This document shows, piece by piece, positions 12,767 through 58,913 of a stretch of DNA of 64,000 nucleotides. Position 1 is the first letter of the stretch, and each line of letters begins with the position of its first letter. The stretch lies in the NCBI RefSeq assembly GCF_058153355.1, contig NZ_CM177019.1. One strand, given 5' to 3'. The translations under genes and the position numbers were made by a program. The notes under the pieces were generated by a model, which worked only from the letters and a program-made list of their open reading frames with translations, did not search any database and was not told where the DNA came from.

Positions 12767-13387
12767 TTAGAGGATTTCCAGCAGTTCGACTTCAAACACC
12801 AGGGTGCTGAACGGAGGGATGGACGCGCCTGCGCCACGCTCGCCATATGCCAGTTCCTGCGGGATAGTCAGTTCCCATTTAGAACCTACCGGCATCAGAG
12901 TCAGTGCTTCAATCCAGCCAGGGATCACGCCGTTAACCGGGAATTCAGCTGGCTCGCCACGGGCAACAGAGCTGTCAAACACAGTGCCGTCGATCAGTTT
13001 ACCGGTGTAATGAACACGAACGCGGTCAGTGCGTGCCGGAATTGCGCCTTCCCCCTGATTGATCACGCGGAATTGCAGGCCAGATTCGGTGCTATTCACA
13101 CCTTCTTTTTTGGCGTTTTCTTCCAGGTATTTCACACCTTCAGCAGCCATCGCCTGGAAACGCTGACGACGAACGGCATCGGCGCGTTCGTGGATTTCAC
13201 GCAGCGCGCGGTGCACCACATCAACCGGAACAGCCGGATGTTTGCCTTCCAGCGCATCGGCAATGCCTGCAACCAGTGCTTCTGGCAGCAGCCCTTCCAG
13301 GCCAGATTCACTCAGTTGTTGCCCTACCTGCAAACCAATGCCGTAGCTTGCTTGCGCTTCGATGGTGTCAAAAGTTGGGGTGGTCAT
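12767..13387 (-). CDS. fklB: FKBP-type peptidyl-prolyl cis-trans isomerase
   Basis: Start trimmed to MTTPTFDT (206 aa); FKBP domain ([25 protein letters not shown]). Confidence 0.92.
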
Positions 13388-13604
13388 CGTATTTCCTTTC
13401 TTAGGGTATAAAGTAGCGGGCAGCATATCAGCCACACTTCTTTGGGTAAAACTTTGTCGCGGGAATGATGACAAATCCCGGGGAAAAAGAAACAATAGCA
13501 ATATCCCGTATGAATATAATAAAGGCGGGTTTACCACGGACATCATAGCGTTAGCTTATTCATAGGCTATGATTGAGGAACAAGACGCGGAGCAGGAGGA
13601 AACC

Positions 13605-14243
13605 ATGCCCGGGCGCTTTGAACTAAAACCAACCCTGGAGAAAGTCTGGCACGCGCCGGACAATTTTCGCTTCATGGACCCGCTACCGCCGATGCATCGT
13701 CGGGGGATCATTATTGCCGCTATTGTATTGGTGGTCGGATTTCTACTCCCGTCTGATGATACGCCAAACGCGCCGGTGGTGACGCGTGAAGCACAGTTAG
13801 ATATTCAGTCGCAATCACAACCGCCGACAGAAGAACAGCTGCGGGCGCAATTAGTCACACCACAAAATGATCCTGATCAGGTGGCTCCGGTCGCTCCAGA
13901 ACCGATACAGGAAGGCCAACCGGAAGAGCAGCCGCAAACCTCGCAAGTGCAACCTTTCCAGCCAGATAGCGGAATTGACAATCAATGGCGCTCTTATCGT
14001 GTCGAACCCGGTAAAACAATGGCGCAGCTGTTCCGCGACCACGGACTGCCCGCTACCGATGTCTATGCAATGGCGCAGGTAGAAGGCGCGGATAAGCCAC
14101 TGAGTAATTTGCAAAATGGGCAGATGGTGAAAATCCGCCAGAACGCCAGCGGCGTGGTGACGGGCTTAACCATTGATACGGGAAATAATCAACAGGTCCT
14201 GTTTACCCGCCAGCCGGATGGCAGTTTTATTCGCGCGCGGTAG
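13605..14243 (+). CDS. ytfB: cell-division protein YtfB (OapA/LysM-like)
   Basis: Start trimmed to [10 protein letters not shown] (212 aa); one TM segment, Pro/Gln-rich linker, C-terminal OapA-like domain. Confidence 0.85.
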
Positions 14244-14874
14244 ATGAAGGGTCAACCAGAAGCCAGCTAAGGATCGTCTCTTTGATGACCTTACGCCTGG
14301 CTTCCAGTGCCTGCGGTGAAACCATACTGATGTGATAAACCAGGCCAAGCGTATGTTGGTTGATCAAATAATATCCTCCAAGAGCAGCAATATTAATATT
14401 CACCTGCAACGGGTCGATATCTGGCTTAAAAATATTGCGCCGTTTGCCTTCAGCTAATAATGACTCCATTAACTGTAAGTGTGCGTGGTTAATTTCTAAA
14501 AGGCGCTGTGATTTTGCATAATGCACCCCTTTACTCTGGTTTTCACTATGCACAATTTTTAAAAACCAGGGGTTAGCAATGTAATAATCCCAGGTGAAAT
14601 CGATAATTTTCTCAATGGCTTTTTGTGGCGGAAGACCTGAGAAATCAAGGGATTTTTCTTTTTGCCGAATATCATTCCAGGTATATTCCAGCACTTCGAT
14701 AAATAAATTTTCTTTATTACCAAAGTGATGATAAACCGTCTGTTTACTGCACTCCGCGGCCTTGACGATATTATCGACTCTGGCCCCTTCGTAACCATAT
14801 TCGGCAAATTCATTAACCGCACATAACAACAGCTTTTCCTTCAGGCTTTGTACGTTGCTGGTATCAAGATACAT
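14227..14874 (-). CDS. TetR-family transcriptional regulator, intact, at the K-12 ytfA position
   Basis: Start taken at MYLDTSNVQ (215 aa); TetR N-terminal HTH ([32 protein letters not shown]); divergent from the downstream operon; 3' end overlaps ytfB by 17 nt. Confidence 0.8.
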
Positions 14875-15085
14875 TCCGCTTCCCCACGTCTTCTTCGTGA
14901 TGACTATCTTAACCCGATTTGTTAGAAGCTCCACTAAAATGGCTAAAAACTCGCAATTTCATCGGGTTATCAAATGCTCTGTGATCATTATCGCATATCA
15001 ACCAACTAGATGGTTGATCTTTCTTGCCACACATTGCAAGCTAATCGTCACTTAAGGAAATAATATTCAAAAAGAGGGTTATTGT

Positions 15086-15877
15086 ATGAAGTCAACACGT
15101 CCTGTTGCTGTCATCACTGGAGCCGCACGTGGTATTGGAAAGGGCTGTGCACTGGAACTTGCGCGTGGCGGATTTAATCTGCTGATTAATGATCGTCCGG
15201 ATGCCGACAGCGTAGAAAAATTACATGCCACACAACAAGAATGTCTGGCGGAAGGCGTGGAAGTCATTTGCTTCCCTGCCGATGTCGGCGATCTCTCCTT
15301 GCATGAAGAGATGCTCGACGCGGCGCAAAACCAGTGGGGGCGTCTGGACTGCCTGCTCAATAACGCCGGGATTTCAGTGAAAAAACGCGGTGACCTCCTC
15401 GACCTCGAACCAGACAGCTTCGACCAAAACATTGCCATTAACACCCGTGCGCCGTTCTTCCTTGCTCAGGCATTCAGTAAGCGATTACTGGCACAGCCGA
15501 AACCGGAAGCAGAACTGCCGCACCGCTCGATTATTTTTGTCAGTTCCATAAACGCCATCATGCTGGCGATGAATCGCGGCGAATATACCATTGCCAAAAC
15601 TGCCGTCTCCGCCGCAGCTCGCCTGTTTGCCGCTCGCCTTTGCAATGAACAAATTGGCGTTTATGAAGTGCGCCCTGGCCTAATCAAAACCGATATGACC
15701 ATTCCGGCAACGGCTTATTACGACGAACTGATTGCTAAGGGGTTAGTGCCGTGGGGACGTTGGGGTTATCCGGCTGATATTGCCTCAACGGTCCGCGCGA
15801 TGGCGGAAGGCAAACTGATTTACACCTGTGGTCAGGCGGTCGCCATCGACGGCGGCTTAAGTATGCCGCGCTTCTGA
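15086..15877 (+). CDS. short-chain dehydrogenase/reductase (SDR)
   Basis: 263 aa; TGAARGIG cofactor motif, NNAG, catalytic YxxxK (YTIAK); AGAGGG RBS. Confidence 0.85.
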   Translation: MKSTRPVAVITGAARGIGKGCALELARGGFNLLINDRPDADSVEKLHATQQECLAEGVEVICFPADVGDLSLHEEMLDAAQNQWGRLDCLLNNAGISVKKRGDLLDLEPDSFDQNIAINTRAPFFLAQAFSKRLLAQPKPEAELPHRSIIFVSSINAIMLAMNRGEYTIAKTAVSAAARLFAARLCNEQIGVYEVRPGLIKTDMTIPATAYYDELIAKGLVPWGRWGYPADIASTVRAMAEGKLIYTCGQAVAIDGGLSMPRF

Positions 15878-15886
15878 GGCTGAATC

Positions 15887-16729
15887 ATGAGAGATCTGTT
15901 ACAACGCCCGGATTTATTCAGTATCAATACTGCGACACTGGGCTATAAAACACCGCTACCTGCCATTATTGATGCCTGCGCCGCACGCGGTATTGGCGCG
16001 ATTGCCCCCTGGCGCAGGGAGTTACAGGGTGAAGATCTCCAACAAATCGCCCGCCAGCTTGCTGCCAGTAACATGAGCGTTTCCGGTTTGTGCCGTAGCA
16101 CCTATTACACCGCGCCGACGCTGACGGAACGCAAACTGGCGATTGATGATAACCGCCGGGCGCTGGACGACGCCGCTGTACTGAACGCCGCCTGTTATAT
16201 GCAGGTGGTTGGCGGTCTGCCAATGGGAACAAAAGATCTGTACGAAGCGCGGGAACAGGTGAAACAAGGGATTCGCCAGTTGCTGCCACATTCGAAAGAT
16301 GTCGGCGTACCAATTGCGCTGGAGCCGCTACACCCGATGACCGCCGCCGATCGCTCTTGCCTGTGCACGTTACGTCAGGCGCTGGACTGGTGTGATGAAC
16401 TCGATCCCGATGGGGAGTTTGGCCTCGGCGTGGCGGTGGATGTTTATCACGTCTGGTGGGACCCGGATCTCGCCAGTCAGATCCTGCGTGCCGGAAAGCG
16501 CATCCTCGCGTTTCATGTTTCCGACTGGCTGGTGCCAACCACCGATTTAGTCAATGACCGGGGAATGCCGGGAGATGGCGTAATCAATATTCCGTCTATT
16601 CGTCGCCAGGTAGAAAATGCCGGATTTAACGGTGCTATTGAACTGGAAATATTCTCACCGTACTGGTGGCAAAAAGATATTAACAGCACACTGGATATTA
16701 GCGTCGATCGCATCGCGCATTATTGCTAA
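15887..16729 (+). CDS. sugar phosphate isomerase/epimerase-like TIM-barrel protein
   Basis: 280 aa; overall resemblance to xylose-isomerase-like TIM-barrel enzymes (IALEPLHP, AFHVSD); 9-nt gap to upstream gene. Confidence 0.6.
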   Translation: MRDLLQRPDLFSINTATLGYKTPLPAIIDACAARGIGAIAPWRRELQGEDLQQIARQLAASNMSVSGLCRSTYYTAPTLTERKLAIDDNRRALDDAAVLNAACYMQVVGGLPMGTKDLYEAREQVKQGIRQLLPHSKDVGVPIALEPLHPMTAADRSCLCTLRQALDWCDELDPDGEFGLGVAVDVYHVWWDPDLASQILRAGKRILAFHVSDWLVPTTDLVNDRGMPGDGVINIPSIRRQVENAGFNGAIELEIFSPYWWQKDINSTLDISVDRIAHYC

Positions 16730-16732
16730 GGA

Positions 16733-17515
16733 ATGATCATGAGTGACCAACCCGTTCTGTTCAGCAGAGCGGCGGCTTCCTGCCGCCTGACATTGAACCG
16801 TGAAGATAAATGTCATGCTATTAATGAAGAAATGATCGAATCTCTCGACCATTATTTAAATGAAATTGAAAACGACACCACATTACGATTAGTCGAATTA
16901 ACGGCAACCGGCGATAAATTCTTTTGTGCAGGCGGCGATATTAAATCGTGGTCAGCCTATTCGCCATTAGATATGGGCAGAAAATGGATTAAACGCGGCA
17001 ATGACGTTTTTAATCGCCTGCGCAACTTACCCCAATTAACCGTTGCGAATCTCAACGGTCATACCATCGGCGGCGGTATTGAACTTGCCTTGTGCTGTGA
17101 TATTCGTATTGCCCGCCCCGGCGCGAAATTCTCTAACCCGGAAGTGATGCTCGGCATGGTACCTGGCTGGATGGGCATTGAACGCGTGCTTAATCAGGTC
17201 GGTCCGGTGGTCGGTCGCCAGATGCTGATGCTGGGTAAACGCCTGACGGCGCAGGAAGCTCAGGCGGCGAATTTAATTGATGAAGTGGTAGAAAAAGAAC
17301 AGGTGGAAAGCTGGATGGCGAATCAGTTAGCGCAACTGGAAAAATGTGGTCCGGTAGCGCTGGCACATATTAAGCAACTGATTCTGGCGCTGGAAAATAA
17401 ACACGCCGATTACCCGCACCAGTTACTGGCTGGATTAATGTCCGCCACTCAGGATTGCCAGCAGGCGACGCGCGCATTTGCCGAAAAAGCCAGCGTGAGC
17501 TTCCATAATCAATAA
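16733..17515 (+). CDS. enoyl-CoA hydratase/isomerase (crotonase family)
   Basis: 260 aa; FFCAGGDIKSW and GHTIGGGIELALCCDIRIA crotonase-fold motifs. Confidence 0.8.
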   Translation: MIMSDQPVLFSRAAASCRLTLNREDKCHAINEEMIESLDHYLNEIENDTTLRLVELTATGDKFFCAGGDIKSWSAYSPLDMGRKWIKRGNDVFNRLRNLPQLTVANLNGHTIGGGIELALCCDIRIARPGAKFSNPEVMLGMVPGWMGIERVLNQVGPVVGRQMLMLGKRLTAQEAQAANLIDEVVEKEQVESWMANQLAQLEKCGPVALAHIKQLILALENKHADYPHQLLAGLMSATQDCQQATRAFAEKASVSFHNQ

Positions 17516-17524
17516 GGAAATTGT

Positions 17525-19066
17525 ATGCGTAAGATAACAACCGCCGAGACACTGGCGGCGCAAATTCAGGACGGCGCAACCATTGCCATTAGCGGTAATG
17601 GCGGTGGCATGGTGGAAGCGGACCATATTCTGGCTGCTATTGAAGCGCGTTTCCTGCAAACCGGACACCCGCGCGATCTGACATTAATCCACTCACTGGG
17701 CATTGGCGATCGCGACTGCAAAGGCACTAACCGCTTCGCTCATGCAGATATGCTCAAACGCATCATTGCCGGACATTTTACCTGGTCGCCCAAGATGCAG
17801 GATCTGGTGAAAAACAATGCTATTGAAGCCTACTGCTTCCCTGGTGGCGTAATTCAGGCACTGCTGCGGGAGATCGGTGCCGGACGTCCAGGGCTTTTTA
17901 CCCACGTTGGGCTGGGATCGTTTGTTGATCCGCGCAACGGCGGCGGTAAGTCGAACGCCAGCACCACTGAGGATCTGGTAGAACTGATTGAAATCGACGG
18001 TGAAACCAAACTTCGTTATCGCCCTTTCAAAGTGGACTACGCGATTTTGCGTGGCACTTATGCCGATCCGCGTGGCAACGTCAGCCTCGAAGAAGAGGCG
18101 ATTGATATGGATAGCTATTCCATGGCGCTGGCAGCACACAACAGCGGCGGCAAAGTGTTCGTACAGGTGCGCGATGTGCTGGAAGCTGGTGCCATTGAAC
18201 CACGCCGGGTCAAATTACCGGGCATTCTGGTTGATGGCATCGTTGAACACCGCGAACAACCGCAAACCTATCTTGGCGGTTACGACCTGACCATCAGCGG
18301 TCAGCATCGCCGTCTAAGTTCTAACGACGCTATTGAACTGGTTAGTCATCCGGTGCGCCGCCTGATTGCCCGTCGGGCAGCACGCGAACTGGTGGCTGGC
18401 GCTTCAACCAACTTTGGCTTTGGTATTCCGGGCGGTATTCCAGGAGTAGCGCTGCGCGAAGGCGTGCCTTATCAAAGTTTATGGCTGAGCGTAGAACAGG
18501 GCGTACATAACGGCATGATGCTGGATGATGCTCTGTTCGGCTGCGCCCGTAACGCCGATGCCATTATTCCATCACTCGATCAATTCGAATTCTACAGTGG
18601 CGGAGGGATCGATATCACCTTCCTCGGCATGGGAGAGATGGATCAGTACGGTAACGTCAACGTCTCCCATCTCAATGGCAATCTCATTGGCCCCGGCGGA
18701 TTTCTCGAAATTGCGCAAAACGCCCGTAAAGTGGTGTTCTGCGGCACGTTCGACGCCAAAGGTAGCAAGATTGATGTAACACCAGATGGCTTGCATATTG
18801 CCCAGTCAGGTCAAATCCCTAAACTGGTTACCCAGGTGGAAAAAATCACTTTTAGCGCCGCCTACGCACAGCAAAGCGGTCAGGAAGTGTTGTATATCAC
18901 TGAACGTGCAATATTCCAGTTAACGGCAGAAGGCGTTGAATTAATTGAAATCGCACCAGGTGTGGAGATTGAGCGCGACATTCTGCCATATATGGCTTTC
19001 CGTCCAATTATCAATCAGCCACGCCTGATGGAAAGTAGCCTGTTTACGCCGATGGAGGATGCATGA
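17525..19066 (+). CDS. family I CoA-transferase, fused A/B subunits (YdiF-like)
   Basis: 513 aa; two-domain CoA-transferase architecture; stop overlaps next start (ATGA). Confidence 0.7.
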   Translation: MRKITTAETLAAQIQDGATIAISGNGGGMVEADHILAAIEARFLQTGHPRDLTLIHSLGIGDRDCKGTNRFAHADMLKRIIAGHFTWSPKMQDLVKNNAIEAYCFPGGVIQALLREIGAGRPGLFTHVGLGSFVDPRNGGGKSNASTTEDLVELIEIDGETKLRYRPFKVDYAILRGTYADPRGNVSLEEEAIDMDSYSMALAAHNSGGKVFVQVRDVLEAGAIEPRRVKLPGILVDGIVEHREQPQTYLGGYDLTISGQHRRLSSNDAIELVSHPVRRLIARRAARELVAGASTNFGFGIPGGIPGVALREGVPYQSLWLSVEQGVHNGMMLDDALFGCARNADAIIPSLDQFEFYSGGGIDITFLGMGEMDQYGNVNVSHLNGNLIGPGGFLEIAQNARKVVFCGTFDAKGSKIDVTPDGLHIAQSGQIPKLVTQVEKITFSAAYAQQSGQEVLYITERAIFQLTAEGVELIEIAPGVEIERDILPYMAFRPIINQPRLMESSLFTPMEDA

Positions 19067-21135
19067 GTCAGCTTGATGACACCCTCCTTGATGCGCTGAC
19101 GCACGTCACTTTCCCGAAGGGTTTTGTGTCAGCAGAGCCAGCGTCAATTGTCACGGTTGAAGATGTCGATTACCCGATCTGGCAAGTTGATGCGCTAGTC
19201 GTTGGTAGCGGCGCGGCAGGGCTGCGCGCAGCGGTTGAACTTAAGCGCCGCCAGCAAAATGTGCTGATCGCCTCCGCCGGGTTATATATGGGGACATCGG
19301 CATGTTCTGGTTCCGATAAACAGACGCTGTTTACCGCCGCTACCGCGGGCAACGGCGATAACTTCGCCAAACTGGCGGAAGCACTGGCGAGCGGTGGGGC
19401 GATGGATCACGACACCGCTTATGTCGAAGCGGTAGGTTCTCTGCACACTCTTGGCGGGTTGCAATATCTTGGTCTGGAATTACCGGAAGATCGCTATGGC
19501 GCAATTCTTCGTTATCAAACCGACCATGACGAAGCCGGGCGAGCAACCTCGTGTGGGCCGCGTACTTCTCGCCTAATGGTGAAAGTATTGCTGGAGGAAG
19601 TGCAGCGTCTTGCCATACCACTACTGACCAGTGCAACGGTGATTAAGCTCCTGCATCAGCACGGAGAGAATGGCGAAGATCGCGTTGCGGGGGCTATTCT
19701 CGCAACCGGTTCCCGCGCCTATAACCCCTGGGGGCTGGCTATTGTGACGGCGCCCAATGTGGTACTGGCAACGGGCGGACCGGGCGAGCTTTATCGCGAC
19801 AGTGTTTATCCACATAAATGCTTCGGCTCGCTGGGACTGGCACTGGAAGAAGGTTTGACGCTAACCAATCTGACCGAAAGCCAGTTTGGTATAGGCACGC
19901 CGCGCAGCACGTTTCCGTGGAATTTGTCCGGCACCTATGTACAGGTGATCCCATATATCTATTCCGTGGATGCCGGGGGCAACGAGTATAACTTCCTCGC
20001 AGATTACTATCGCACCACCCAGGAGCTGGCTTCAAACATCTTCCGTAAAGGCTATCAGTGGCCGTTTCACGCCACACGAGTGATGGATTTTGGCTCCAGC
20101 TTGTTAGATATGGCAGTAGCGCAAGAGCAGCAATCAGGACGTCAGGTATTTATGGATTTCAATCGCAATCCTGAACCTGTGCCGGGTGACCTGCCGTTCT
20201 CATTAGATCGACTGGACGACGACGTTCGCGCGTATCTGGAAAATAACGACGCTCTGGCACCATCGCCCATCGAACGACTGCAACGAATGAATCCGCTGTC
20301 TATCTCGCTGTATAAGATGCACGGTTACGATCTCACCACGCAGCCATTGCAGTTTGCCATGAATAATCAGCATATAAATGGCGGCATTGAAGTGGATATC
20401 TGGGGGCAAACCTCCCTGCCCGGATGTTTCGCCGTGGGGGAAGTTGCTGGCACACACGGCGTCACTCGCCCTGGTGGTGCGGCATTGAATGCCGGGCAGG
20501 TTTTTGCTGTTCGTCTGGCACGTTTTATTGGTTGCACGCAAAAACGTAATATTGATGGAGATATAGCACAGCTGGTAGCTCCGGCACTGGCTTCTATAAG
20601 AGAGATCATTACTCAGGCGCACGATAACGGGACCGGGATGCCGTTGTCGGTTGTGAGGGAAAAAATTCAGGCACGAATGTCTGACTACGCGGGATTTATT
20701 TGCCATGCCGATAAAGTCCGACGCGCCACTCGTGATGCCCTGCTATTGAACGAATTTGTGCAACGGCATGGATTGGCAATCAAACATGTGGGTGAAGTTG
20801 CCGAGCTATTTATGTGGCGGCATATGGCGCTGACTTCTGCCGCGGTATTAACACAATTAACGCATTATATTGATGCTGGTGGTGGTAGCCGTGGGGCGCG
20901 TATGGTTATTGATCCACAAGGCAAATGCCTACCACAAACTCGTCGCGGCGCAAAAGAAGAATGGCGTTTTCGCTCTGAACTCGCTGAAGACAAAAATCAC
21001 AAATTAACAATTCAATATTCGCAAGGTTCTTTTATTACCGAAGTAAAGTCTTTACGTATGCAACCGTGTATTAACGGTATTTACTTTGAAAAAAACTGGC
21101 CAGACTTTTTAAAGGGAGACATTTACACACAGTAA
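19063..21135 (+). CDS. FAD-dependent oxidoreductase, fumarate reductase/succinate dehydrogenase flavoprotein-like
   Basis: 690 aa; N-terminal dinucleotide fold VVGSGAAGLRAAVEL; second FAD-contact motif GCFAVGEVAGTHG; long C-terminal extension. Confidence 0.7.
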   Translation: MSQLDDTLLDALTHVTFPKGFVSAEPASIVTVEDVDYPIWQVDALVVGSGAAGLRAAVELKRRQQNVLIASAGLYMGTSACSGSDKQTLFTAATAGNGDNFAKLAEALASGGAMDHDTAYVEAVGSLHTLGGLQYLGLELPEDRYGAILRYQTDHDEAGRATSCGPRTSRLMVKVLLEEVQRLAIPLLTSATVIKLLHQHGENGEDRVAGAILATGSRAYNPWGLAIVTAPNVVLATGGPGELYRDSVYPHKCFGSLGLALEEGLTLTNLTESQFGIGTPRSTFPWNLSGTYVQVIPYIYSVDAGGNEYNFLADYYRTTQELASNIFRKGYQWPFHATRVMDFGSSLLDMAVAQEQQSGRQVFMDFNRNPEPVPGDLPFSLDRLDDDVRAYLENNDALAPSPIERLQRMNPLSISLYKMHGYDLTTQPLQFAMNNQHINGGIEVDIWGQTSLPGCFAVGEVAGTHGVTRPGGAALNAGQVFAVRLARFIGCTQKRNIDGDIAQLVAPALASIREIITQAHDNGTGMPLSVVREKIQARMSDYAGFICHADKVRRATRDALLLNEFVQRHGLAIKHVGEVAELFMWRHMALTSAAVLTQLTHYIDAGGGSRGARMVIDPQGKCLPQTRRGAKEEWRFRSELAEDKNHKLTIQYSQGSFITEVKSLRMQPCINGIYFEKNWPDFLKGDIYTQ

Positions 21136-21227
21136 TTTTCAATATTTACTCTGTACCTGATTTTTATTGCCTATTACATGGAAATACCAACAACCAGGGT
21201 TTATTAATATAATTAAAAGGTTTAAAA

Positions 21228-22505
21228 ATGAATAAAATAAAGAATTATCGATGGCATATGATTGCCCTCGTATGCTTTATCACTGTAATCAATTATCTGG
21301 ACAGAACGGCGTTAGGTATTGCGGCTCCAACGATTATGGAGACAACCGGAATAACCAAAGAACAATATTCATGGATTGTCAGTGCATTCCAGTTGGCCTA
21401 TACATTGGGGCAACCGGTAATGGGCTTCTTTATTGATACCGTGGGTCTGAAGTTAAGTTTTGCGATATGTGCCGCAATCTGGGGCCTGGCGACAATGGGG
21501 CATGCCTTGACAGGAACATGGTCAGGTCTGGCATTTATGCGCGCCCTGATGGGTTTCAGCGAAGCATCGGCAATTCCTGCGGGTGTAAAAACCGCATCAA
21601 CATGGTTCCCGGCAAAAGAGCGTGGCGTGGCGACAGGTGTTTTCAATATGGGCACCTCACTCGGCGCGATGCTTGCTCCACCGTTGATTGCCTGGTGCAT
21701 TATGTTTCATAGCTGGCAATTTGCGTTTATTGTCTCAGGTAGCCTTGCTTTACTCGCGGCTTTATTTTGGTTCTTTTGTTATAAAGATCCAAAAGATGCT
21801 AAACGCCTTTCTGATGAAGAGCGCCACTATATTGAGTCTGGGCAAGAACAGCATCTTAAAACAGATAAGAAAGAAAAAACGTCAATCAAGCATATCCTCA
21901 GCCAACGTAATTTCTGGGGGATTGGCATCGCGCGTTTTCTCGCTGACCCGGCATGGGGAACCATTAACTTCTGGGTACCGATTTTCTTCGTCGAAACGCT
22001 GCATTTTAGCCTGAAAGAAATTGCCATGTTCGTCTGGCTGCCTTTCCTGCTGGGCGATCTCGGCTGTTTAGCCAGTGGTTTTGTCGCGAAGTTCTTCCAC
22101 GATCGCGGCGTGAGTTTAATTAACTCACGAAGAATTACCTTCACTATTGCAGCCGTCATTATGATGACGATTGGTCTGGTGAGTATTGTCGAAAATCCCT
22201 ACATCGCCGTATTACTGATTAGCATTGGCGCATTCTCGCATCAATGTCTTTCTACTGTAGCAGCAACTCTGGGCGGTGACCTATTCAAAAAAGACGAAGT
22301 AGCTACCGCAGTGGGTATGGCAGGAGCCTGTGCGTGGAGCGGTCAGTTGATTTTCAACCTGTTCATCGGGGCATTCGTTCACATTATCGGCTTCGCGCCG
22401 TTCTTTATTGCCCTGGCTTTCTTTGACATTATTGGTGCTATTGCGTTGTGGACGCTTATCAAAGTTAAAGATGAAGAACCACAAGTACAGTTAGCTACCC
22501 ACTAA
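21228..22505 (+). CDS. MFS transporter, anion:cation symporter type (hexuronate/galactonate-like)
   Basis: 425 aa, about 12 TM; N-terminal motifs (NYLDRTALGIAAP) typical of ExuT/DgoT/GudP-like acid-sugar permeases. Confidence 0.7.
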   Translation: MNKIKNYRWHMIALVCFITVINYLDRTALGIAAPTIMETTGITKEQYSWIVSAFQLAYTLGQPVMGFFIDTVGLKLSFAICAAIWGLATMGHALTGTWSGLAFMRALMGFSEASAIPAGVKTASTWFPAKERGVATGVFNMGTSLGAMLAPPLIAWCIMFHSWQFAFIVSGSLALLAALFWFFCYKDPKDAKRLSDEERHYIESGQEQHLKTDKKEKTSIKHILSQRNFWGIGIARFLADPAWGTINFWVPIFFVETLHFSLKEIAMFVWLPFLLGDLGCLASGFVAKFFHDRGVSLINSRRITFTIAAVIMMTIGLVSIVENPYIAVLLISIGAFSHQCLSTVAATLGGDLFKKDEVATAVGMAGACAWSGQLIFNLFIGAFVHIIGFAPFFIALAFFDIIGAIALWTLIKVKDEEPQVQLATH

Positions 22506-32336: not shown

Positions 32337-33092
32337 ATGACTGAAGCACAAAGACATCAAATTCTCCTGGAAATGCTCGCACAATTGGGCTTTGTGACCG
32401 TTGAGAAAGTCGTTGAGCGTCTGGGAATTTCGCCTGCTACCGCTCGACGCGATATCAATAAACTTGACGAAAGCGGCAAACTGAAAAAAGTGCGCAATGG
32501 CGCAGAAGCCATCACCCAGCAGCGCCCACGCTGGACGCCGATGAATCTGCATCAGGCGCAGAACCATGATGAAAAAGTACGTATCGCTAAAGCAGCCTCG
32601 CAGCTGGTGAATCCCGGCGAAAGCGTCGTCATCAACTGCGGTTCCACCGCGTTTCTGCTTGGGCGGGAAATGTGTGGCAAGCCAGTGCAAATCATTACTA
32701 ATTATCTACCGCTGGCGAATTACCTGATCGATCAGGAGCATGACAGCGTGATTATCATGGGCGGCCAATACAACAAAAGCCAGTCCATCACCTTAAGTCC
32801 ACAGGGCAGCGAAAACAGTCTCTATGCCGGGCACTGGATGTTTACCAGCGGCAAAGGACTGACCGCAGAAGGGTTGTATAAAACTGATATGCTGACGGCA
32901 ATGGCAGAGCAGAAGATGTTGAGCGTGGTAGGGAAACTGGTGGTACTGGTTGATAGCAGTAAGATCGGCGAACGTGCGGGGATGCTCTTTAGTCGTGCAG
33001 ATCAAATCGATATGCTGATCACCGGCAAAAATGCTAACCCGGAAATCCTGCAACAACTGGAAGCGCAAGGGGTCAGCATTCTGCGTGTTTAA
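32337..33092 (+). CDS. ulaR: DeoR-family repressor of the ula regulon
   Basis: 251 aa; N-terminal HTH, DeoR C-terminal sugar-binding domain. Confidence 0.93.
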
Positions 33093-57773: not shown

Positions 57774-57775
<2 letters not shown>

Positions 57776-58913
57776 GTCAGAGCCCCTCGATCTCAATCAG
57801 TTAGCGCAAAAAATTAAACAGTGGGGGCTGGAACTGGGCTTTCAGCAGGTAGGTATTACCGATACCGATCTCAGCGCGTCCGAGCCCAAACTGCAAGCAT
57901 GGCTGGACAAACAATACCACGGCGAAATGGACTGGATGGCGCGTCACGGTATGCTGCGCGCCCGCCCCCATGAGTTATTGCCCGGTACGCTGCGCGTCAT
58001 CAGCGTGCGGATGAATTACCTTCCTGCTAACGCCGCATTTGCCAGCACGCTGAAAAACCCCAAACTCGGCTATGTAAGTCGTTATGCGTTGGGCCGTGAC
58101 TATCACAAACTTCTGCGCAACCGACTCAAAAAGCTGGGCGAGATGATTCAGCAACATTGTGTTTCGCTGAATTTTAGACCGTTTGTCGATTCTGCGCCTA
58201 TTCTCGAGCGCCCGTTAGCTGAAAAAGCAGGTCTTGGCTGGACAGGTAAGCACTCACTTATCCTCAATCGCGAGGCCGGTTCGTTCTTCTTTTTAGGTGA
58301 ATTACTGGTCGATATTCCGCTGCCCGTGGATCAACCGGTCGAGGAAGGATGCGGTAAATGCGTGGCTTGTATGACGATTTGCCCGACCGGCGCCATCGTC
58401 GAGCCATATACCGTCGATGCTCGCCGCTGTATCTCTTATCTCACCATTGAACTGGAAGGGGCGATCCCGGAAGAGCTGCGTCCATTGATGGGAAACCGTA
58501 TTTACGGTTGCGATGACTGCCAGCTTATCTGCCCATGGAATCGCTATTCGCAACTCACTACAGAAGACGATTTCAGCCCGCGCAAACCACTACACGCACC
58601 GGAACTCATTGAGTTATTCGCCTGGAGTGAAGAGACGTTTTTAAAAGTCACGGAAGGTTCGGCGATTCGCCGTATAGGTCACCTGCGTTGGCTGCGTAAT
58701 ATCGCCGTGGCATTAGGCAATGCCCCCTGGGATAAAACGATTTTGACAGCGCTGGAAAGTCGTAAAGGTGAGCACCCACTTCTTGATGAGCACATAGCGT
58801 GGGCGATTGCGCAGCAAATCGAGAGGCGAAATGCGTGCGTCGTAGAGGTACAACTACCGAAAAAACAGCGTCTGGTTCGCGTGATTGAAAAAGGGTTACC
58901 GCGTGACGCCTGA
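57774..58913 (+). CDS. queG: epoxyqueuosine reductase
   Basis: 379 aa from MSEPLDLNQ; 4Fe-4S motif CGKCVACMTICPTGA; track ORF 57666 is a 5' extension. Confidence 0.9.

Follow-up and report, generated by a model that had tools for sequence, protein, structure and literature searches.

The convergent genes ytfB and a TetR/AcrR-type regulator of Escherichia coli share 17 nt at their 3' ends, and this overlap is ordinary in kind and length and looks passive as far as the sequences indicate, with the ytfB frame constrained and dictating the sequence and the tail of TetR unconstrained. A stem-loop that lies just beyond it, written inside the TetR coding sequence, is, judging from codon choice, under selection that is tied to the adjacency of ytfB, and it is probably the missing end-signal of the ytfB message. 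With moderate confidence, we favor a reading that combines an old and passive overlap with Rho termination and a protective 3' stem-loop for the ytfB mRNA.

The window, that is, the whole stretch of 64,000 nt that was analyzed, is a segment of the E. coli chromosome with the gene order msrA ... cycA-fklB-ytfB-TetR-operon-yjfZ-rplI ... mscM. The RefSeq record of strain 24A16CRGN010, which is 99.9% identical over the query and has the same numbering as the window, served as the annotation reference. The features at and around the junction are the following:

13605-14243, + strand: ytfB, 212 aa, with the Pfam domains OapA_N and LysM_OapA; a cell-division protein
14067-14226, - strand: TetR-sense RNA beyond the stop of TetR and complementary to the ytfB 3' end; candidate rut region
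14227-14243, both strands: tail-to-tail overlap of the two genes, TTATTCGCGCGCGGTAG, 17 nt
14227-14874, - strand: TetR/AcrR regulator, full-length with 215 aa, with the Pfam domains TetR_N and TetR_C_29
14259-14304, + strand: stem-loop of 46 nt lacking a U tract; antisense of TetR codons, 15 nt past the ytfB stop
14305-14450, + strand: untranslated ytfB-sense RNA, antisense to TetR, with a G-poor stretch at 14364-14443 (C/G 1.38)
14997-15018, both strands: near-perfect palindrome ATCAACCAACT/AGATGGTTGAT in the divergent promoter region, midway from the TetR gene to the operon
15086-22505, + strand: six-gene accessory operon, divergent from TetR

Both ytfB and TetR are genuine protein-coding genes, with Pfam domains on each, and the TetR gene at 14227-14874 represents the intact state of what is the pseudogene ytfA in K-12. 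Its TetR_C_29 domain extends to residue 201 out of 215, and the tail, residues 202-215, is variable. The regulator fits the layout expected of a local repressor, as its sequence combines an N-terminal HTH with a C-terminal ligand domain and its gene is accompanied by a divergent operon and a candidate operator, which is probably the palindrome at 14997-15018. The operon encodes an SDR, an AP_endonuc_2 TIM-barrel protein, an enoyl-CoA hydratase, a fused CoA-transferase, a 690-aa FAD oxidoreductase and an MFS transporter. The SDR (PRK12745, a family whose name is pathway-neutral) is the sole product above the curated NCBIfam cut-off, and all the others score below it, including the fused CoA-transferase, which is FadX-like; the 690-aa oxidoreductase belongs to FAD_binding_2, and the transporter is of the D-galactonate type. 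The comparisons with other genomes draw on a TetR homologue search, which returned 113 proteins at E <= 1e-20, and on a genome scan with YtfB, which recovered 44 ytfB loci. As to the other neighbor of ytfB, the gene at 12767-13387 (-), long known as fklB (FKBP-type prolyl isomerase), is now "bamJ" in the newest RefSeq annotations, with the product name "BamJ family beta-barrel-assembly machinery protein", and the name fklB is retained in other records.

The 17-nt convergent overlap noted in the preliminary description is real and is found at the same coordinates in the RefSeq annotation of the 99.9% identical genome. The ytfB stop codon is TAG (14241-14243) and that of TetR is TAA, the complement of TTA at 14227-14229, so that TTATTCGCGCGCGGTAG is translated as (F)IRAR* in the ytfB frame and as (S)TARE* in the TetR frame. 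Because the overlap is defined by the two stop codons, it is independent of the choice of start codon and is no artefact of start annotation. Furthermore, the chance of four stop-free codons in a random frame is (61/64)^4 = 0.82, which places the run-on of TetR near expectation. Ten convergent pairs are annotated in the 64-kb window and three of them overlap, by 17, 4 and 18 nt, the remaining seven being separated by gaps of 44-149 nt. The 4-nt case is ulaR/yjfP (33089-33092), and the 18-nt case (58896-58913) pairs queG with an annotated hypothetical ORF of 17 aa; queG also has a divergent overlap of 2 nt with nnr (57774-57775). The E. coli reference genome holds 75 convergent overlapping pairs (Huvet & Stumpf 2014, PMC4161906), and overlaps are best tolerated in the convergent orientation, in which they originate by 3' extension (Palleja 2008, PMC2478687). 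The ytfB/TetR overlap is thus one of dozens in E. coli, and it is already annotated.

The region is matched in 5,416 of the 5,426 complete E. coli genomes, and 3,146 of them (58%) have a full-length TetR gene. In about 42% of the complete genomes, K-12 included, the promoter and the N-terminus of TetR have been lost, by deletion or IS insertion, and ytfB is intact. K-12 has the 17-nt overlap, its TetR being reduced to the promoterless C-terminal fragment ytfA and its operon being deleted; this type of deletion spans window position 14629 to yjfZ. In O26, an IS200/IS605 (TnpB) element is inserted at window position 14334, and the O157 and O111 matches break at query position 14334 too. The truncated variants that were examined are K-12-type, O26 and Escherichia sp. 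E1V33; each retains the hairpin and no less than 108 nt at the 3' end of TetR.

Outside E. coli, E. albertii, E. whittamii, Salmonella enterica and a Citrobacter sp. share an identical overlap of 17 nt, and among the TetR homologues, 215-aa forms came from Salmonella and a Citrobacter sp. On these sequences, the overlap goes back at least to the Escherichia-Salmonella-Citrobacter group. The idea that TetR beside ytfB is specific to Escherichia was dropped, because the peptide patterns of the ytfB scan had missed Salmonella and the contexts of the TetR homologues show otherwise. A minority E. coli allele, with about 80% DNA identity, has 8 extra nucleotides, and its ytfB TGA abuts the TetR stop with a gap of 0 nt; its TetR protein ends in VNPARG* vs VDPSSTARE* in the window. 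This allele is present in about 400 E. coli genomes, where it encodes a 209-aa YtfB and a 212-aa TetR (contig coordinates 3106-4374 and 3101-4369 in two of the loci), and the FklB beside it is the K-12 protein, with the same WP accession; given its inter-genus divergence, the allele looks like an imported recombinant segment. The gap is +11 nt in Lelliottia sp. RWM.1 and +15 nt on an Entomohabitans-like contig. Hence, the junction is tight (-17 to +15 nt) in five genera, and its exact length is labile. The unit of TetR and the operon, represented by TetR and the first four operon genes, has further locations that are not beside ytfB: one in Leminorella, a second Salmonella context and two metagenomic contigs. 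Two further ytfB matches probably reflect contamination or mis-binning: a 267-nt contig labelled Alkalicoccobacillus porphyridii with a YtfB N-terminus 99% identical to that of E. coli, and a "Thermoanaerobacteraceae" MAG contig with an Enterobacter-type ytfB.

The C-terminus of YtfB, FIRAR or FIRVR, keeps its position in about 40 species, whether or not TetR is present, and therefore the overlap originates on the TetR side. In about 35 species that lack TetR at this site, ytfB is followed after 5-15 nt by an intergenic GC-rich hairpin (e.g., GCCGGGTAAGGCGAAGCCGCCACCCGGC or GCCCGGTGGCGCTAACGCTTACCGGGC), with a T tract in some copies, and then by a different convergent gene, which is conserved and ends in ...TTATTCACCCACCAGATCCCCGA. 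To judge from their sequences, these hairpins look REP-like or similar to bidirectional terminators, and their occurrence suggests that a hairpin right after ytfB is the apparent ancestral state.

The overlapped TetR residues are 212-215, beyond TetR_C_29, and the tails of the regulator differ among relatives (TARE, TAHE, TARG, IWRE and shorter forms), while FIRAR of ytfB is fixed. Every substitution seen in the 17 nt is synonymous for ytfB and non-synonymous for TetR. The TetR stop itself is the opposite-strand reading of the conserved ytfB codons for Phe-Ile, where TTT-A gives TAA and TTC-A would give TGA, and the geometry persists because this stop is built from those codons. That the same 17-nt geometry recurs in Escherichia, Salmonella and a Citrobacter sp. 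might be taken as a sign that the overlap was selected as a dual-coding segment or for genome compaction, but this is very unlikely: the length of the junction is labile in relatives (0, +11 and +15 nt), the substitutions all spare ytfB and all alter TetR, the overlapped TetR residues fall outside the Pfam domain, and a stop derived from Phe-Ile suffices for the geometry to persist.

The stem-loop at 14259-14304 consists of 19 pairs, is GC-rich and has a folding energy of -24.2 kcal/mol, which places it in the top 0.05% of the 42,636 46-nt windows taken from both strands of the 64-kb window. When the TetR peptide encoded there was recoded with synonymous codons, none of 5000 recodings was as stable (mean -7.8, sd 3.2, best -21.4 kcal/mol). 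The stem-loop is present in all eight loci where TetR abuts ytfB, namely, K-12, the divergent E. coli allele, E. albertii, E. whittamii, Salmonella, a Citrobacter sp., Lelliottia and Entomohabitans, at -19 to -25 kcal/mol; in the recoding test, the energies of these eight loci are -20.6 to -25.4 kcal/mol and are matched by at most 0.1% of recodings. Conversely, it is absent from the four TetR orthologues that lie away from ytfB and accompany the same operon (-0.7 to -7.6 kcal/mol, matched by 41-99% of recodings), a contrast that may reflect one or two evolutionary events, as the eight loci form one clade. Among those lacking it, the TetR of Leminorella has 82% protein identity to that of the window, to which it is as similar as the Lelliottia and Entomohabitans proteins are.

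RNAalifold retained 16 pairs of the stem-loop, one of which varies as CG/GC/UG/UA, so that the covariation consists of one fully compensatory pair in few independent lineages. In the alignment of the stem-loop, read as the ytfB-sense strand, there are 22 G.U cells vs 2 A.C cells. The two strands have similar energies; in two of the eight loci (the minor allele of E. coli and Lelliottia), it is the TetR-sense strand that folds more stably. Folding of the whole region gave z-scores of -1.5 and -0.85, the signal being visible only at the scale of the hairpin. No match to a known RNA family was returned by Rfam at E <= 1 over 13300-15200.

The preliminary description also held that the overlap leaves no room for terminators. 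This is correct in that there is no intergenic space and TetR has no intrinsic terminator of its own, but it does not extend to ytfB, whose 3'-end signals lie inside the TetR coding sequence. Indeed, ytfB transcript ends upstream of the overlap cannot hold, because the ytfB stop codon is within the overlap. An intrinsic terminator at the junction was considered and rejected, as the consensus scan gave only a weak minus-strand candidate at 14212-14190 (3 GC pairs) and the folding was insignificant. The stem-loop itself is flanked by GGUCAACCA before and CAGUGCCUGCGG after, with neither an A tract on the 5' side nor a U tract on the 3' side, and the terminator scan does not report it; the U tract is likewise absent after the stem-loop in Salmonella, Citrobacter, Lelliottia and Entomohabitans. 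For TetR, no reciprocal selected hairpin was found in the last 30 ytfB codons, where the recoding test on the TetR-sense strand of the TetR-bearing loci gave p = 0.33-0.71.

Transcript data are all from K-12, in which TetR is a promoterless fragment, and were placed on the window by the relation g = 4442322 - w, with g the MG1655 and w the window coordinate; the conversion was checked on two anchors, the cycA start (4429864) and the published sequence of the 3' end at 4428652. The available part of Supplementary file 2 of Adams et al. 2021 (PMC7815308) gives, at 4427873(-), a region of Rho termination that is antisense to ytfA, on the strand of ytfB. Without bicyclomycin, coverage there drops from 219 to 39, and in its presence the change is from 185 to 318; the region has a Rho score of 9.65 with p = 8e-39 in the same material (PMC7815308). 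After coordinate conversion, this region maps to about 14449, which is some 200 nt downstream of the ytfB stop and 145 nt beyond the stem-loop. The RNA that follows the stem-loop is only weakly C-rich, with C/G ratios of 0.86-1.38 in 80-nt windows and 16% G in 14364-14443. On the opposite strand, TetR-sense RNA at 14067-14226 has 30-33% C and 20-25% G, with C/G ratios of 1.2-1.6 over the first 160 nt.

A steady-state 3' end at the stem-loop does not appear in the accessible portions of two K-12 Term-seq lists, which have none between 4426606 and 4428652 (PMC7815308); this absence speaks against a protected end there, although low abundance of ytfB could explain it. The TERMITe supplements make no mention of ytfB. 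The 3' end that is called for ytfB in the K-12 Term-seq material at hand is internal to the ORF, at 4428652(-), and is strong and Rho-independent (Term-seq 32337 and 96021; PMC7815308). It coincides with an intrinsic-terminator-like hairpin, GTCTGGCACGCGCCGGAC and then AATTTTCGC, at 13644-13670 (+), within ytfB codons 14-22. Given the strength of this end, most ytfB transcription may end once about 66 nt of the coding sequence have been copied, a pattern suggestive of attenuation or of a small RNA derived from the 5' end. Codon selection for this internal hairpin was discarded, since comparison with recodings gave p = 0.06-0.10 and the hairpin is largely dictated by the conserved WHAPD peptide.

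These observations can be assembled into a mechanism in which the overlap would be the by-product of packing a TetR-regulated accessory operon right next to the ytfB 3' end, with the TetR frame overrunning its conserved core by five residues into the antisense of the last ytfB codons. Transcription of ytfB would pass through the overlap and the stem-loop into the antisense of TetR, and Rho would halt it some 100-200 nt farther along. The RNA would then be trimmed by 3'-to-5' exonucleases back to the stem-loop, leaving a stable and protected 3' end. TetR has no equivalent element, so its transcripts are probably ended by the action of Rho, within the C-rich antisense of ytfB. We infer here the protective role of the stem-loop, the strand of its action and what becomes of the TetR transcript. 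As the ytfB 3' signals are inside the TetR coding sequence, the two transcripts would overlap by at least 60-200 nt, and not by 17 nt, whenever both promoters are active.

Such a transcript overlap makes antisense effects between ytfB and TetR physically possible, and the preliminary description had raised the prospect of interference. The junction could be a regulatory device, in which collision of polymerases, or dsRNA degraded by RNase III, would let induction of the operon and its autoregulated TetR lower or otherwise alter YtfB expression. The lack of intergenic space and of an intrinsic terminator for TetR is consistent with this proposal, as is the maintenance of a tight junction (-17 to +15 nt) in five genera. 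In addition, the ytfB transcripts of K-12 reach at least 200 nt into the TetR antisense and would be complementary to TetR transcripts over the hairpin and the overlap if both promoters fire. Synthetic work in E. coli, attributed to Brophy and Voigt in 2016, is said to show that antisense transcription can tune expression. We nevertheless regard the device as unlikely: any coupling is dispensable, given that approximately 42% of the complete E. coli genomes have an intact ytfB but neither the promoter nor the N-terminus of TetR, and the overlapped TetR codons drift freely. Moreover, repressors of the TetR type are usually autorepressed and weakly transcribed, and a weak promoter means little interference.

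The hairpin, in turn, may have been selected for something other than the end of the ytfB message, either as an element for pausing or stability of the TetR mRNA or, at the level of DNA, as a protein-binding palindrome or a cruciform. Both strands are similarly stable, with the TetR-sense strand being stronger in the two loci named above, and the K-12 Term-seq data, in the parts available, have no 3' end at the hairpin, all of which would suit another role. A TetR-intrinsic element is, however, awkward to reconcile with the absence of the hairpin from the TetR genes away from ytfB, and trimming of the TetR mRNA to a hairpin upstream of its stop codon would give a non-stop message. As for DNA, the excess of G.U over A.C cells produced by one-sided changes (22 vs 2) favors an RNA of the ytfB sense, and the hairpin has no similarity to the candidate operator palindrome. 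Another role is therefore improbable. Bolder still is the proposal, which we consider quite unlikely, that the 3' part of the TetR coding sequence was recruited, through codon choice and in no fewer than five genera of enterobacteria, to encode the 3'-terminal hairpin of the ytfB mRNA in antisense, such that derepressed TetR mRNA would destabilize or unmask the ytfB message. If it were true, a TetR mRNA derepressed by substrate would be perfectly complementary to the ytfB hairpin and stop region, and a catabolic operon would be coupled to YtfB, a cell-division and adhesion protein.

The favored reading, a passive overlap with Rho termination and a protective stem-loop, would offer one answer to the missing-terminator problem of packed convergent genes, namely, an mRNA-end hairpin embedded in the coding sequence of the neighbor, kept by selection on synonymous sites, with Rho acting downstream. 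The coding-embedded stem-loop would then join a known class of mRNA-end elements as a new case open to testing. If confirmed, it would mean that the "silent" sites of the TetR gene are under an additional constraint and would explain why at least 108 nt of TetR are kept beside ytfB in every deletion or IS variant examined. It would also call for caution when the ytfA/TetR sequence adjoining ytfB is recoded or deleted in engineered strains.

Several known systems can be set beside this junction. The overlap as such is essentially like the convergent overlaps that arise by displacement of stop codons (Rogozin 2002; Fukuda 2003; PMC4161906; PMC2478687): it is short, it lies at the 3' ends, the frame runs to the next in-frame stop in the neighbor, and it is conserved among related genomes. 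Compared with the commonest convergent class, which is of 4 nt, the ytfB/TetR overlap is somewhat longer, and it is common to three genera.

With excludons and other cases of antisense regulation by overlapping 3' UTRs, the junction shares the feature that the ytfB and TetR transcripts must overlap by tens to hundreds of nucleotides. It differs from excludons in that the promoter of the partner of ytfB, TetR, is dispensable in many strains, and reciprocal expression is not in evidence.

Bidirectional intrinsic terminators, which also serve convergent genes, have reportedly been described by Ju and colleagues in 2019. They are further treated in the accessible part of Wang et al. 2022 (bioRxiv 10.1101/2022.10.23.513370). 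The likeness is that a single hairpin sits at the convergent ytfB/TetR junction, but this hairpin has neither the upstream A tract nor the downstream U tract, and its location upstream of the TetR stop codon means that it could not terminate TetR productively.

The closest counterpart is the class of Rho-terminated E. coli mRNAs described by Dar & Sorek 2018 (PMC6061677), which, according to the portion of that report available, have precise steady-state 3' ends just past stable stem-loops without U tracts, with rut sites immediately beyond these stem-loops. Like the members of this class, as there described, ytfB has a stable stem-loop soon after its stop codon and no U tract, followed in K-12 by bicyclomycin-sensitive termination downstream. 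The RNA beyond the stem is unstructured and includes a G-poor stretch. Unlike them, the predicted 3' end at the ytfB stem is absent from the portions of the K-12 Term-seq lists examined, and the stem-loop is written in the coding sequence of the convergent gene, where it is kept by codon choice.
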